Shown here: one piece after another, positions 1,593 to 5,787 of the stretch
Layout: each line of letters begins with the position of its first letter
How positions within the stretch are numbered: position 1 is the stretch's first letter
IMG/VR virus record: IMGVR_UViG_3300005949_000047
Reading direction: 5' to 3' (one strand)
DNA from: a virus
Length of the DNA: 7,267 bases
Notes under the pieces: model-generated
Told to the model about the DNA's origin: nothing
The model's database searches: none
What the model saw: the letters and a program-made list of their open reading frames with translations, nothing else
Program-made: the position numbers and the translations under genes

Positions 1593-3116
1593 TTAAACCC
1601 CTTGACCGACAATTTCGGCCGCTTTGCGTAAGGCGAATGCGACATTGAGGAACCCAAGGAACGTCAAGAAGTCACAAAAGCCGGAAAGGTTAAAATCAAG
1701 TTCAGTCTTAAACTGACCGAAAGGAATGCTAATGGAGGGAAGTACAGGGCAAGAAGAACTGAAAATCTTATCAGTCTTGATCAAGCTAGAAATGTCATGA
1801 ACATCATCACCCTGGGCGGTGATGGGCTGGTAATCCTTACCGGCGAACTCAGAAGTCAAAGAAGCCTTTGCATCATTAACCGGACCATCCGACAAATCGC
1901 GGAACTTCAAATCTGCACAGCGCGACTGTTGTTCCTGACGAAGAATCGCGCATTGGATAACGTCACCAGTACAGGTAACAACAGCGGGACACGTCATATC
2001 ACCAGAAACAAAACCCTTATCCTTATCCTCATCATCATCGCCGTCACCTTCACCACCCTGCCCGTTCCCATTGTTACCATTGCCATTACCAGTGCCAGAA
2101 CCAACTTTGCCACCACCACACTCAGGACCAGTACAGGTGCTGGAGTTGGGCTTAGAAGTCCCGTTTGAATTAGTGCCACCAGAAGTAACAGTAGTAGTAG
2201 TGCCGCTAGAGCAATTACCTACACCCTTGCAAGAGGTAGTATCAGTAACAACAGTCGTATTAGTGCTGGTAGAACCATCAGCATTTTTAGTGCTGGTTTG
2301 TGTAGTGGTCGACTTTGAGGTATTAGAAGCTGACTTTGGATTCTCAACACAAACCCAAGCACCGTTAGCCGTGCCGCACTGCGTTGTGCCCGGAGTAGAA
2401 TCGGTCTTTGTGGAAGTGCAAGTAAAACCACTTCCAGCAGGAATGGCAGAACAAGGATTGTCTGTTGTTTGCTTCTGAGGCTCACCATCGGTACAAGCAG
2501 TACCGGTACAATCCTTTCCATCGGGACCCTTAGAGGGATCAGTCTTATCACCAGTGATTGTTGCAGTACCGGTACAGCTATATTGACCAGCGGTAGTATT
2601 CTTACAAATAGTCACGCCACTAATCTTGGCAGCACAACCATTAATGGAAATAGTATCGCCGGGTGTGTCAGTAGCCGAGTCCCAACGAAACTTAGGAATA
2701 GCAGTGTCCTTAAGGATCGCACACTTATTATCAGGATTGCAGGTGCCCTTAACAGGATCAAGGGTGCTACCAGACGCACATGAAGAACCAGTACGAACAG
2801 CCTGAGCGACAACAGTAGTGGTGCCGCTCTTATTGTTAGTAACAGTGCAATTATATTGAGCAGCAGTAACAAAAACAGCGCCTGCATACGTGACATTCTC
2901 GTTAGAGAAATTTGCAGCAGCACAGGCACCCTCAGGGGAAGAAGAAGTAAAGCGACCGTTAGAATTAACAGTCCATAAATAATCAGCAGCAAAAACAGGC
3001 GACGAGGCAAGACAAACAAATATAAAGCTAGCGACCAGTACAAAGGAGGAAGAAACCCGCAGTAAGCCAAAACCAAATAAAGTCATCGGGCGAGATATAC
3101 ATTTTAATAGCCTCAT
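1593..3116 (-). CDS. pIII-like adsorption / minor coat protein (507 aa)
   Basis: N-terminal signal peptide ending ...SSPVFA/ADY, then Cys-rich globular segments and Ser/Thr-rich low complexity. A Gly/Asn/Asp linker (GSGTGNGNGNNGNGQGGEGDGDDDEDKDKG) follows, and the C-terminus is a hydrophobic anchor (FCDFLTFLGFLNVAFAL RK). It lies immediately after the major coat gene and terminator. GGAG sits 6 nt upstream of the ATG. Confidence 0.8.
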   Translation of the reverse strand: MRLLKCISRPMTLFGFGLLRVSSSFVLVASFIFVCLASSPVFAADYLWTVNSNGRFTSSSPEGACAAANFSNENVTYAGAVFVTAAQYNCTVTNNKSGTTTVVAQAVRTGSSCASGSTLDPVKGTCNPDNKCAILKDTAIPKFRWDSATDTPGDTISINGCAAKISGVTICKNTTAGQYSCTGTATITGDKTDPSKGPDGKDCTGTACTDGEPQKQTTDNPCSAIPAGSGFTCTSTKTDSTPGTTQCGTANGAWVCVENPKSASNTSKSTTTQTSTKNADGSTSTNTTVVTDTTSCKGVGNCSSGTTTTVTSGGTNSNGTSKPNSSTCTGPECGGGKVGSGTGNGNGNNGNGQGGEGDGDDDEDKDKGFVSGDMTCPAVVTCTGDVIQCAILRQEQQSRCADLKFRDLSDGPVNDAKASLTSEFAGKDYQPITAQGDDVHDISSLIKTDKIFSSSCPVLPSISIPFGQFKTELDFNLSGFCDFLTFLGFLNVAFALRKAAEIVGQGV

Positions 3117-3130
3117 ATTGAACTCCGGGC

Positions 3131-3165
3131 AAAAAAAAGCCCGGAGGGAGGAATTCCCACCGGGC
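3131..3165 (-). terminator. Rho-independent terminator after the major coat gene
   Basis: On the minus strand the sequence reads GCCCGG-T-GGG-AATTCCT-CCC-T-CCGGGC followed by T8. It lies 15 nt downstream of the coat gene stop, which is the classical position of the strong post-gVIII terminator in filamentous phages. Confidence 0.85.
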
Positions 3166-3179
3166 GTTACAGAGCGGGA

Positions 3180-3407
3180 TTAGGTCCCTGCGCGCTGAGC
3201 TTTCTTAGCGGCGCCCACCAGGGCAACCAGACCCAGCATTGCAGTGGCAACGAGACCAGCAGCAACAACGCCTGCCGCAATCCACGCGAGCGAAGACGAA
3301 GTATCGAAGGTCTCACCAGCGGCGAACGTTGGACCGGCAGCAGCGGCAACAACAGCACCTGCAAACAGGGCTTTCAAAGAAACGGCAGAACGGTATTGTT
3401 TTTTCAT
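3180..3407 (-). CDS. Major coat protein precursor (pVIII-like, 75 aa)
   Basis: Basic N-terminus (MKKQYR) with a hydrophobic signal ending TFA/AG. The predicted 46-aa mature peptide has an acidic N-terminus (AGETFDTSSS), an Ala/Gly/Val-rich TM helix and a basic C-terminus (KKAQRAGT). AGGTGA Shine-Dalgarno upstream. Confidence 0.9.
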   Translation of the reverse strand: MKKQYRSAVSLKALFAGAVVAAAAGPTFAAGETFDTSSSLAWIAAGVVAAGLVATAMLGLVALVGAAKKAQRAGT

Positions 3408-3414
3408 AATTCAC

Positions 3415-3624
3415 CTATGCAGCTAAACGGAGGGTTTTGCCCACGTAACAAACAACAAAGAAAACAAGCAGAGCGCTGGTTATCTCCATCTTTGAAGACA
3501 TGGGTATTGCGGGAGAGAGTTGATCTCTCATTTCCTGAACTGTGAAAGTCTGGAGCTGACCAGAACAAACAGAGGTTCCATCAGTCTGAACTTGCCACAT
3601 CCCATCACAGCCCAAAAAATTCAT
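3415..3624 (-). CDS. Small membrane protein, candidate pVII/pIX-type minor coat protein (69 aa)
   Basis: Positioned directly upstream of the major coat gene. Single C-terminal TM (ITSALLVFFVVCYVG) followed by basic residues; AAGG Shine-Dalgarno upstream. An internal start (MSSKMEITS...) would give a peptide of about 28 aa, the size of pVII/pIX. Function is inferred from position only. Confidence 0.5.
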   Translation of the reverse strand: MNFLGCDGMWQVQTDGTSVCSGQLQTFTVQEMRDQLSPAIPMSSKMEITSALLVFFVVCYVGKTLRLAA

Positions 3625-3683
3625 GGTGCTACCTTTTAATACAAATCAAAAACAGGTTGAAAAGCCGGTTAAATCAAACGCGA

Positions 3684-3827
3684 TCAATCGTCGTCGTCAT
3701 CATCATCATCATCAGGCGATTCCCAATAAGTGTCTGGATCATTCGCGCACTCGTCGCAAGCAAAACCAAACTCACCAGAGGCATCACCAGAATCGAAGGA
3801 GTTGCCACAAACCTCACACTCAACCAC
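3684..3827 (-). CDS. Small zinc-ribbon-like protein with a poly-Asp tail (47 aa if GTG-initiated), or the +1-frame extension of the upstream ssDNA-binding protein
   Basis: An open frame encodes VVECEVCGNSFDSGDASGEFGFACDECANDPDTYWESPDDDDDDDDD, which has a CxxC...CxxC pattern plus nine Asp. A GTG lies 1 nt after the gV-like stop, with GAAGG 9 nt upstream. There is no ATG in the non-overlapping part. The longer 143-aa ORF in the track overlaps gV and is poly-Leu junk upstream. Confidence 0.45.
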   Translation of the reverse strand: MVECEVCGNSFDSGDASGEFGFACDECANDPDTYWESPDDDDDDDDD

Positions 3828-3828
3828 G

Positions 3829-4161
3829 TCAAACAGCCTTCGAAGAAGAAGCAGGAGAAGCAGTAGAAGCAGAAGAAAAAGCAGCAGAAAGCGGTGGAAC
3901 GTTCTTACGGCGACCCTGACGAGGATCACAAGTAAACTCAAGACGGCCATCACGAACATCGACAATAACGTCGCACTCATAAGTACCGGGCTGAGGAACC
4001 TCGTTAACAGCACTGGCATAGAATGAAGTTTTCTGAGGGTACGGATCATTTGGCAAATGAACATACGCCTCAAACATACACCACGGTTTAGAGGTGCCGG
4101 ATTTAGTAGAAACACCGGAGCGCTCGCGGCCAGTTACTTCAACAAGGAGTGTCATAGACAT
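3829..4161 (-). CDS. gpV-like ssDNA-binding protein (110 aa)
   Basis: The pattern LLVEV..RSGVS.K.G..KPW...EAYV.LPNDPYP......VPQPGTYE.DV.V....GRL parallels the Ff gene V protein (VEIK...RSGVSRQGKPY..EQLCYVDLGNEYP...PGLYTV). Size and position between rep and the coat genes fit. AAGGG Shine-Dalgarno upstream. It also carries an unusual Ser/Ala-rich C-terminal tail. Confidence 0.8.
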   Translation of the reverse strand: MSMTLLVEVTGRERSGVSTKSGTSKPWCMFEAYVHLPNDPYPQKTSFYASAVNEVPQPGTYECDVIVDVRDGRLEFTCDPRQGRRKNVPPLSAAFSSASTASPASSSKAV

Positions 4162-4172
4162 GATGGGGCCCT

Positions 4173-4427
4173 TTACAATGTTGGAAGTCGGGAACTAATG
4201 CCCGGCTTACGAAATGCCCAACCGGGCACGGTTAAATCAGGACGACGCCTGAAAGTTAAAAGCTCACGCTTCAAAGATTGCTGCCTGACTTGTTCAGACG
4301 ACAAAGCTTGGAGAAACAGGCGCATAAGCGAATTAGTGAAAGCAGTACTATCAACGACGCCAGAGTCAAGATTAGCAACTTGATTCTCCACGGAAAAACG
4401 AAGTAGCTGATAGGCAGACTTATCCAT
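4173..4427 (-). CDS. Hypothetical small protein (84 aa; 89 aa if started at 4442)
   Basis: Open frame in the operon. The second in-frame ATG forms a TGATG stop/start overlap with the upstream ORF, indicating translational coupling. No recognisable motifs. Confidence 0.5.
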   Translation of the reverse strand: MDKSAYQLLRFSVENQVANLDSGVVDSTAFTNSLMRLFLQALSSEQVRQQSLKRELLTFRRRPDLTVPGWAFRKPGISSRLPTL

Positions 4428-4660
4428 CAGTAACCCATCCATTCAGCAAAAGACGGAGTACCCTTTTCCTTTCGTTCCTCAAACCAAACACGCTCAGGTT
4501 TAACGCCCTGCTCTTTACGAGCCTCAACAGCCGCTATTGTTTCAGCAACTTGCTGCTGGAGAACAGGACTCAGAAACGACTGCCGAGCTTGCTGTTGAAA
4601 CGCGAGTTGACGGCGCTGCCCTGGTGAAAGCTGTGTGCCCTGCTGGCTTACGGTGATCAT
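4427..4660 (-). CDS. Hypothetical Gln-rich small protein (77 aa)
   Basis: ATGA start/stop overlap with rep and an AGGTGG Shine-Dalgarno 4 nt upstream. It occupies the position of rstB in CTXphi-type phages, but no sequence similarity could be judged by eye. Confidence 0.6.
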   Translation of the reverse strand: MITVSQQGTQLSPGQRRQLAFQQQARQSFLSPVLQQQVAETIAAVEARKEQGVKPERVWFEERKEKGTPSFAEWMGY

Positions 4661-5787
4661 GCGGCCACCTGCAAATGATTAGGCCGCTTGTACCAGCTTG
4701 GAGGGGCAATGTTCTTGACCGGGTTAATCTCGCGCATTTCACGGATGAAGACAGTAGAAAAAGTCTTCATGTCACAGGCATTGCGTATGTTGATACCAAT
4801 ACGATTAAGGCGTGCCGCATGAGTCTCAAAAGATCTTTGAGAGCAAACAACTTCCTGGCCATGCATCCAAAGATGTGCATAAGAGGCTGTAACGTTCGCA
4901 GCTCTTACAGTATCAACAACTTTTTCAAGAAGTAACTGTTGCGCAATGCTAGCGGTATCCATCTTTGTCACCTTTAGGCGTTGATCAACGCTTAGAAACT
5001 CTTCATGCAGAGTAAGAAATTTGCCTTCATCAAAGAGGCCCCAAAAAGACAAGCGCTGCCGCTTTAGAAATTCATCTTTCAATTCTTGCTCAAGACGAAC
5101 TACACCAACTTGTTTGCAGTAGTCATAAATCTCTTGAGCGTATTTGAATTCTGGAGAACTTTCACCAAATGTCCTTTTAACCTTAGGCAAATGGTTTTCA
5201 AGAATCTCAAAGGCCTTATCATAGGCCTTACGATACTGGAGTCGCGCACCTTTACTATTGCCGGAAGTAGTCCAATCGACGGAACGGCCATTCGAATAGA
5301 GGCGACCGATAGAGTGGCCTATGCGCTGGCTAGCAAGACCGCGAAGATAAGGAATCTCGTTACCCTCCCCGACCGAAATATTAGTGGTTAGATCGATTCG
5401 GTGAATGCAGCAGCCGTCGGCCCAAAGTTGAGAGGCGCTGGCACCCGATTCGCCTTGGCGTATCTCAAACCGCGTGCAACGGGTGAAAGAAGGAAGCCCG
5501 TACTGTGCGAGCAAATCGTTATAGACCGCGATGCACTGTGCAACAGTTTCGAAGCCCCAGAGGTTGTCATGACGATTGAGACGAGAAGGATTGCCATCTA
5601 CGGTGATTTTCCTGCCGGTAACGTGAATTTTGATAGTGGAGCTGTGGCTGCCTTCATGTTTCACGGGACGATAGGAGGTGCTGAGCACTTCACCGGTCAG
5701 GGTATCGATTGCCTTAAAAGCAGTGTCCGATATGACCGGGAGGTCAAAATCGAACTCTTGCGAAACCTTGAGCCAGTCGATGAACAT
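4657..5787 (-). CDS. Rolling-circle replication initiation protein (gpII / RstA / Phage_CRI-like; 376 aa, or 382 aa from ATG at 5805)
   Basis: N-terminal MFIDWLK, then VDGNPSRLNRHDNLWG (the GNPxK..GHN..G-type motif) and a YRKAYDK motif typical of phage/plasmid gene II-type initiators. It is the first gene of the minus-strand operon. The ATG at 5787 has AAGGA 5 nt upstream, whereas the ATG at 5805 has no SD. Confidence 0.88.
   Translation of the reverse strand: MFIDWLKVSQEFDFDLPVISDTAFKAIDTLTGEVLSTSYRPVKHEGSHSSTIKIHVTGRKITVDGNPSRLNRHDNLWGFETVAQCIAVYNDLLAQYGLPSFTRCTRFEIRQGESGASASQLWADGCCIHRIDLTTNISVGEGNEIPYLRGLASQRIGHSIGRLYSNGRSVDWTTSGNSKGARLQYRKAYDKAFEILENHLPKVKRTFGESSPEFKYAQEIYDYCKQVGVVRLEQELKDEFLKRQRLSFWGLFDEGKFLTLHEEFLSVDQRLKVTKMDTASIAQQLLLEKVVDTVRAANVTASYAHLWMHGQEVVCSQRSFETHAARLNRIGINIRNACDMKTFSTVFIREMREINPVKNIAPPSWYKRPNHLQVAA

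Follow-up and report, generated by a model that had tools for sequence, protein, structure and literature searches.

A small gene for an extremely acidic four-cysteine protein very probably stands on its own behind the gV gene of a Pseudomonas-type filamentous prophage

Whether a short reading frame directly behind the gene for a phage ssDNA-binding protein is a gene of its own, or an extension of that protein reached by ribosomal frameshifting, is the question raised by IMG/VR record IMGVR_UViG_3300005949_000047, a stretch of 7,267 nt that we refer to in its entirety as the window. The gV-like gene (4161..3829, minus strand) encodes a protein of 110 aa and ends in TCG AAG GCT GTT TGA C, with the stop codon TGA at 3831..3829. 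From the G of this TGA (3830, minus strand), the +1 frame remains open for 48 codons and reads DVVECEVCGNSFDSGDASGEFGFACDECANDPDTYWESPDDDDDDDDD, followed by a stop codon at 3686..3684. The frame contains no ATG; its only start codon is a GTG at 3827..3825, one base past the gV stop, which opens an ORF of 47 codons plus stop (3827..3684, minus strand) with the translation (M)VECEVCGNSFDSGDASGEFGFACDECANDPDTYWESPDDDDDDDDD. The predicted product has two CxxC knuckles (CEVC-x16-CDEC) and no hydrophobic segment; 19 of its 47 residues are Asp or Glu, and none is Lys, Arg or His. It ends in nine Asp encoded by the triplet run (GAT)5(GAC)3GAT at 3713..3687. A GAAGG element with the core AAGG (3841..3837) lies within the last gV codons, 9 nt 5′ of the GTG and 2 nt 5′ of the GTT codon. 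The first-pass annotation had pointed out the gV terminus, the open +1 frame, the CxxC pair with its Asp run, the lone GTG and the two spacings of GAAGG, and all of these are present in the minus-strand sequence. It left two explanations side by side: a separate tiny gene, or a fusion to gV made by a +1 shift like that of prfB.

The window carries a standard inovirus module, consisting of a G2P-type replication protein gene, two small ORFs, gV and the small ORF, which are followed by genes for a membrane-type protein of 69 aa, a coat-like protein of 75 aa, a pIII-like protein of 507 aa, a DUF2523 protein and Zot. All phage genes around the small ORF are on the minus strand, as are gV and the small gene itself. 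The gV protein matched PF17878 (ssDBP, the Pf3-type ssDNA-binding protein) with E 1.8e-17 and 63.5 bits (cutoff 27) over profile positions 7-80 of 81. Its C-terminal extension (3829-3900, minus strand) is a Ser/Ala/Pro-rich low-complexity segment, AAFSSASTASPASSSKAV; in loci L023 and L025 this extension is long as well, in most relatives it is shorter, and its length bears no relation to whether the zinc-ribbon gene is present.

Reverse-complemented, the window is identical to positions 8-7274 of JGI metagenome contig 3300026220 Ga0209855_1000010, which is 101.7 kb long. A terminal repeat of 120 nt, formed by the zot 3′ end plus 18 nt, occupies positions 1-120 and 7148-7267 of the window; in the contig it measures 127 nt (1-127 and 7148-7274) and begins at the very first base. 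The repeat gives a phage unit of 7147 nt, which is present either as a tandem prophage or because the assembly incorporated reads of the replicative form. The phage-host junction in the contig falls between ...cgcataat and gtatatt, with non-phage genes to the right of the phage; the host neighbours include tautomerase, DsbA, TerB and BrxC/BrxD-like genes. A Pseudomonas host is indicated by an orthologous locus in the genome of Pseudomonas sp. DWP3-1-2 and by the named homologues among 57 gV relatives, which are found in Pseudomonas prophages (e.g., PSPPH05 of P. savastanoi). No close phage record was found in GenBank, the nearest characterised phage being Pseudomonas phage PMBT54 (gV 37% identical). 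The sole megablast match of the whole window in GenBank phages consisted of 36 identical nucleotides (window 6143-6178) in a region of Pseudomonas phage 17897 (7182 nt; host P. aeruginosa) that has no annotation; they may mark a shared attachment or regulatory site. A 20-nt inverted repeat with 95% complementarity and a 6-nt loop (TTATAGTAACGTTACCAGTA / TATTGGTAACGTTACTATAA; window 6532-6577) lies just upstream of a plus-strand ORF of 156 aa (6585-7055) and is a candidate operator or origin element. ARAGORN found no tRNA in the window, and no Rfam match was obtained within it.

A 48-codon open frame is by itself unremarkable; what marks this one as real is its conservation. Syntenic orthologues, located between gV and the 69-aa gene, were found in three further Pseudomonas-type inovirus loci. 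These are L025 (JGI 3300000063; gV 90% identical), whose protein MVECEVCGNQIDEGDQTGEFGYACDECINDPDTYEESADDDDEDD is 78% identical to that of the window; L026 (an ENA contig), whose protein MVDCEVCGIEFDEGDSSAEFGFACEDCEGDPSTYDLFSGDDEEDEDEY is 57% identical; and L027, from the Pseudomonas sp. DWP3-1-2 genome, which differs from L026 by two substitutions and is likewise 57% identical to the window protein. The four Cys are invariant in all four sequences, and the motifs D-x-G-D, GEFG[FY]AC (EFG[FY]AC) and DPxTY are kept. Every family member has 19-20 Asp/Glu and no Lys, Arg or His. The acidic tail is conserved as well, with variable length and composition: DDDDEDD in L025, DDEEDEDEY in L026 and DDEEDEEDY in L027.

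In three comparisons, pN/pS was 0.25-0.42 in the small-gene frame (pS 0.70-0.84, pN 0.21-0.30) against 0.96-2.5 when the same DNA was read in the two other frames, although the family comprises only four sequence types and these statistics derive from few comparisons. For the window and L025, synonymous sites were nearly saturated (pS 0.84) and pN was 0.21. Such frame-specific depression of pN/pS indicates selection on the encoded protein. The 47-aa product (P0001) was also predicted by gene callers in three other assemblies of the same phage; the three Logan contigs carrying it are 100% identical to the window and thus provide no comparative information.

It is barely conceivable that the frame is no gene at all but has stayed open by chance within a spacer, or as the antisense shadow of an ORF on the plus strand (3623..3919, 98 aa). 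The frame is short, starts with GTG and belongs to no database family, and the window's own protein was all that an initial protein search brought up; all of this would be expected of a spurious frame. However, a spurious frame would have to account for syntenic orthologues that retain 57-78% protein identity although synonymous sites are near saturation, for a pN/pS of 0.25-0.42 confined to one frame, and for the invariance of every Cys.

The arrangement of the junction differs among the four loci. In the window (tcGAAGGctgttTGAcGTG), the small ORF is in the +1 frame relative to gV. In L025 (aagTAATAAGAGGGctttATG, also given as TAATAAGAGGGctttATG) it is in frame 0, behind TAA-TAA, and in L026 and L027 (TAAGG, 9 nt, ATG) it is in the +2 frame, behind TAA. 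The three orthologues start with ATG, and in-frame stop codons are located 3-6 codons 5′ of each ATG. Initiation is thus the only route to the protein that is common to all four loci. The AAGG core stands 9 nt before the start codon in the window and also in L026/L027, in which part of it is shared with the gV stop (TAAGG); this placement fits a Shine-Dalgarno (SD) element of the small gene, and in L026/L027 it leaves no room for a frameshift stimulator ahead of the stop. We infer that GAAGG/AAGG serves as the SD element of the zinc-ribbon gene. Of the conservation proposed as a check in the first-pass annotation, the CxxC pairs were kept in all four loci and the +1 relation to gV was not. At the level of sequence comparison, these findings demonstrate that the small gene is real and independently initiated: the orthologues possess their own ATG and SD element, purifying selection acts on the frame, and the 47-aa product was called in separate assemblies, all as the separate-gene option of the first-pass annotation would have it.

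The other option was a prfB-like +1 shift at GTT-TGA-C, aided by GAAGG, that would extend gV to 158 aa by a zinc ribbon and a poly-Asp tail. The local layout on which it was founded (GAAGG, 2 nt, GTT TGA C) is real, and the +1 frame is open. As at the prfB (RF2) site, TGA is followed by C, a purine-rich element lies a few bases upstream, and the last sense codon ends in T such that TTT is formed at the junction. In more than 12,000 genomes, however, prfB sites nearly always combine a strong AGGGGG with a CTTT located three nt downstream; no alternative to CTTT other than TTTT is stated, and altering any element lowers shifting (PMC12421855). The window has GTT-T instead of CTT-T or the rare TTT-T before the stop. 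Only the four bases AAGG can pair with the anti-SD, in place of AGGGGG, and the spacing to the slippery codon is 2 nt instead of exactly 3 nt. The one element shared with prfB is TGA C (3831..3828), a weak stop context used there (PMC12421855). The downstream frame of prfB is reachable by the shift only and its arrangement is conserved, whereas the ORF here has its own GTG or ATG and lies in frames +1, 0 and +2 among the four loci.

Further observations argue against the fusion. When the fusion was used as query, none of the 57 gV homologues was a gV-zinc-ribbon fusion; all were 93-116 aa in length. No stimulatory RNA structure was detected at the junction, where folding was no better than in shuffled sequences (z = 0.37). 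The sequence of SD element, short spacer, last codon and stop also occurs at the gVI-gI junction of the window (GGGGAGGG-cct-aag-TAATG), and the prfB-like layout behind gV is therefore seen as a by-product of tight gene packing. On these comparative grounds and on the anatomy of the site, we rejected the frameshift fusion, which we consider very improbable. Low-level accidental +1 shifting in this one phage is possible; there is no sign of selection for it.

Two longer candidates covering the same region were also discarded. The +1 frame is open upstream through gV for ~101 codons, and a run this long or longer occurred in 71% of synonymous-codon shuffles of gV; a long overlapping gene was therefore rejected. 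A predicted protein of 98 aa from the JGI contig that contains the window (P0058; 3684-3977, minus strand) proved to be an artefact of this frame, in which poly-Leu derived from the +1 reading of the Ser/Ala-rich gV tail is fused to the zinc-ribbon frame. The JGI pipeline that called P0058 called neither gV nor the 47-aa gene.

We conclude that, very probably, a Pseudomonas-type filamentous prophage carries here a small gene that is independent and optional and encodes a 47-residue, extremely acidic Cys4 protein with a poly-Asp tail. A consensus scan of the minus strand from the replication gene to the coat gene (3150-4700) revealed no promoter or terminator. Because, in addition, genes overlap or abut throughout the window, the small gene is probably part of a long operon and would be co-transcribed with the gII-gV-coat genes. 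Translation would begin at its own GTG one base past the gV stop, with the AAGG 9 nt upstream as ribosome-binding site, and the ribosomes most likely to initiate there would be those that have just terminated on gV. Given this position and only a weak SD element, termination-reinitiation coupling to gV is the simplest reading. A GTG served by a 4-bp AAGG is a weak start, such that output of the small gene may be low or dependent on translation of gV.

The Ff genes gV-gVII-gIX-gVIII are closely spaced, translationally coupled small genes. The gene described here resembles them in the few bases that separate its start from the preceding stop, in having its SD element inside the upstream coding sequence, in lacking a separate promoter and in occupying the same operon slot directly after gV. 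In contrast to the hydrophobic virion cap proteins encoded in that slot in Ff, its product is predicted to be soluble, polyanionic and Cys4, and the gene is optional and is followed by a conserved gene for a 69-aa membrane protein.

The product of this conserved gene (3415..3624, minus strand) has a pair of Cys at its N-terminus and is hydrophobic at its C-terminus; it matched phrog_4800 with E 3.6e-19. From its position and the hydrophobic C-terminus of its product, the gene is probably the equivalent of the genes in the pVII/pIX position. In L023 and in L015-L018, which have no zinc-ribbon gene, the gene of the 69-aa type starts 1-2 nt after the gV stop. In the window, a 59-nt spacer (3625..3683, minus strand) separates it from the zinc-ribbon gene, and the consensus scan found neither a terminator nor a minus-strand promoter within the spacer. 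The spacer opens with the motif TTTGATTTaaCCGGCTT. In an alignment, the motif TTTGATTTnnCCGGCTT was found 3′ of the zinc-ribbon stop in all four loci carrying the gene, and in L026 (258-373) the spacer motif appeared by eye in about three tandem copies with a unit of ~27 nt.

The first-pass annotation placed the small ORF outside the canonical inovirus gene set. This was borne out: the ORF is an optional insertion between gV and the conserved gene for a membrane protein of 66-90 aa. L023, whose gV is 91% identical to that of the window, lacks the zinc-ribbon gene, and its next gene starts 2 nt past the gV stop (TGAtaATG). The small gene is thus evidently dispensable, as judged from this close relative.

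The slot after gV was surveyed in 80 IMG/VR loci with a gV of this type. In nearly all 80, gV was followed by the usual gene, whose product of 66-90 aa combines a Cys pair at the N-terminus with a hydrophobic C-terminal part. In a few lineages, a small ORF for a soluble Cys4 protein, starting with an ATG of its own, is interposed between gV and this gene; sister phages lack it. An insert of 54 aa with 13 Asp/Glu is present in L010 (3294-3458) and L033 and missing from the sister L014. L103 (1814-1957) has an insert of 47 aa with 16 Asp/Glu, MDDDDEEVCSEC...CADC, which its sisters L104-L109 lack. A third insert, of 67-69 aa with 8 and 5 Asp/Glu, occurs in L001 (ATG at ~2840 to the stop at 3042), L030 and L056, and is missing from the sister L002; this type belongs to phrog_9584 (tested on L001) and is only mildly acidic, and in L056 it starts 2 nt after the gV stop. 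Three of the four Cys4 types in the slot, i.e., the window family and those of L010 and L103, are thus strongly acidic. BLASTP detected no similarity between the types of the window and of L010 (E = 11), and the other pairs, compared by eye only, look unrelated. The slot directly after gV looks like a hot spot for accessory genes, and the recurrence of small Cys4 proteins in it could be due to convergence, to homology beyond recognition or to a permissive site.

Members of the window gene's family are very rare: among 5.8 billion protein clusters, a word-indexed search picked out three, and a full HMMER scan of 1.84 billion representatives yielded the window's own protein, a single relative (P0060) and three unrelated matches. 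One of these, P0059 (4220 aa, E 1.5e-33), was spurious, since it is a cysteine-free repeat protein whose score sums 33 weak matches; P0061 and P0062 are generic repeated zinc-ribbon proteins and were uninformative. No further relatives were found in two scans of metagenome contigs (the first was swamped by the poly-Asp pattern), in viral contigs, for which both the peptide and a DNA pattern were used, in genome contigs searched with a single gV protein, or in GenBank phages by tblastn. A literature search on zinc ribbons in filamentous phages also returned nothing. From these searches, the family appears to be new, and would belong among the small phage-encoded zinc-ribbon accessory proteins.

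The Cys4 site is presumably a zinc ribbon; it could be a rubredoxin-like site that binds Fe instead of Zn. Pfam gave nothing significant for the 47-aa protein, with sub-threshold zinc-finger matches only, and no significant match was found in NCBIfam or among PDB sequences. PHROGs and PADLOC gave no match for any of the three family members searched, including none to a profile of known defence or anti-defence proteins. AlphaFold models were of low confidence (pLDDT 54.6 and 64.3). In Foldseek, the top-ranked matches were nearly all zinc-binding modules, but every match had E > 1.

The amino-group carrier LysW (PDB 5k2m chains E/F) was the second of three non-significant PDB matches, the sole one to span both knuckles and the sole prokaryotic one, and it appeared again in Foldseek. 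Like LysW, the small protein has ~50 aa, a start of the form MVECxVCG, two CxxC knuckles ~16-17 residues apart and an acidic composition. However, neither the sequence match (E = 0.82, to 5k2m_E) nor the fold match (E = 4.9) was significant, no Pfam LysW match was obtained at E up to 0.1, and the gene has phage neighbours in place of a lysine or arginine biosynthesis context. The attachment motif EDWGE, with which LysW ends, is absent from the small protein. Membership in the LysW family is thus not supported.

Several small acidic phage proteins, including T7 Ocr, T7 gp5.9, phi29 p56 and PBS2 Ugi, are DNA mimics, and the gyrase inhibitor YacG is a zinc-finger protein in which a Cys4 finger is followed by an acidic tail. 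The window protein shares small size and strong negative charge with all of these, and with YacG also the succession of Cys4 finger and acidic tail, but matches none of them in sequence or fold. A role as a DNA mimic, a regulator or a counterpart of the SSB tail is possible. On the basis of its composition, its sporadic distribution and general knowledge of small acidic phage proteins and YacG, we tentatively propose, as a possibility still short of even odds, that the protein acts as a nucleic-acid-like polyanion and occupies a basic DNA-binding surface, which could belong to a host nuclease or defence protein or to the phage gV. The strongly acidic Cys4 ORFs of L010 and L103, in the same slot but unrelated, also speak for a polyanion. 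Sporadic accessory distribution is typical of counter-defence or host-interaction genes.

One version of this general function concerns gV itself. E. coli SSB, T4 gp32 and T7 gp2.5 have acidic C-terminal tails that dock in the DNA-binding cleft in cis. The small protein could be a trans-acting acidic tail for gV, its poly-Asp docked in the gV DNA-binding cleft, and would then tune ssDNA coating or the hand-over at assembly. The gene always lies directly after gV, near enough for coupled translation, its product is extremely acidic without any basic residue, and other acidic Cys4 ORFs recur in the same slot of other gV lineages. However, the close relative L023 does without the gene, the tail varies in length and sequence, and the position may mirror only a permissive, highly expressed insertion site; we therefore regard the trans-acting tail as unlikely. 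A small accessory protein is also encoded right after the ssDNA-binding protein gene in another Pseudomonas inovirus, P. aeruginosa Pf4, where the gene in this position is that for PfsE (PA0721). PfsE is a hydrophobic membrane peptide, whereas the protein described here is predicted to be soluble, acidic and Cys4, and the two show no homology.

For annotation, these results mean that the 47-aa gene of this locus is real and can be read without recoding, and that the JGI pipeline had the locus wrong. A frameshift would have been a striking result and is not supported. For the Pseudomonas-type inoviruses, they mean that small soluble Cys4 genes come and go after gV between sister phages. Since this distribution is typical of host-interaction or counter-defence genes, the Cys4 genes of the slot are cheap candidates for a functional screen. 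The recurrence of small, mostly acidic Cys4 genes right after gV is the most useful lead. It is a rather improbable prospect that phages with a Pf3-type gV have repeatedly acquired such proteins, of at least four unrelated types, as tails acting in trans or as inhibitors of defence. In the former case, the proteins would provide in trans the regulatory tail that is part of SSB, gp32 and gp2.5 themselves; in the latter, they would be polyanions that inhibit DNA-binding defence proteins of the host, and a new class of such inhibitors. If the window protein is a partner of gV or a DNA mimic, it would represent a new accessory function in a very small and well-studied virus architecture.
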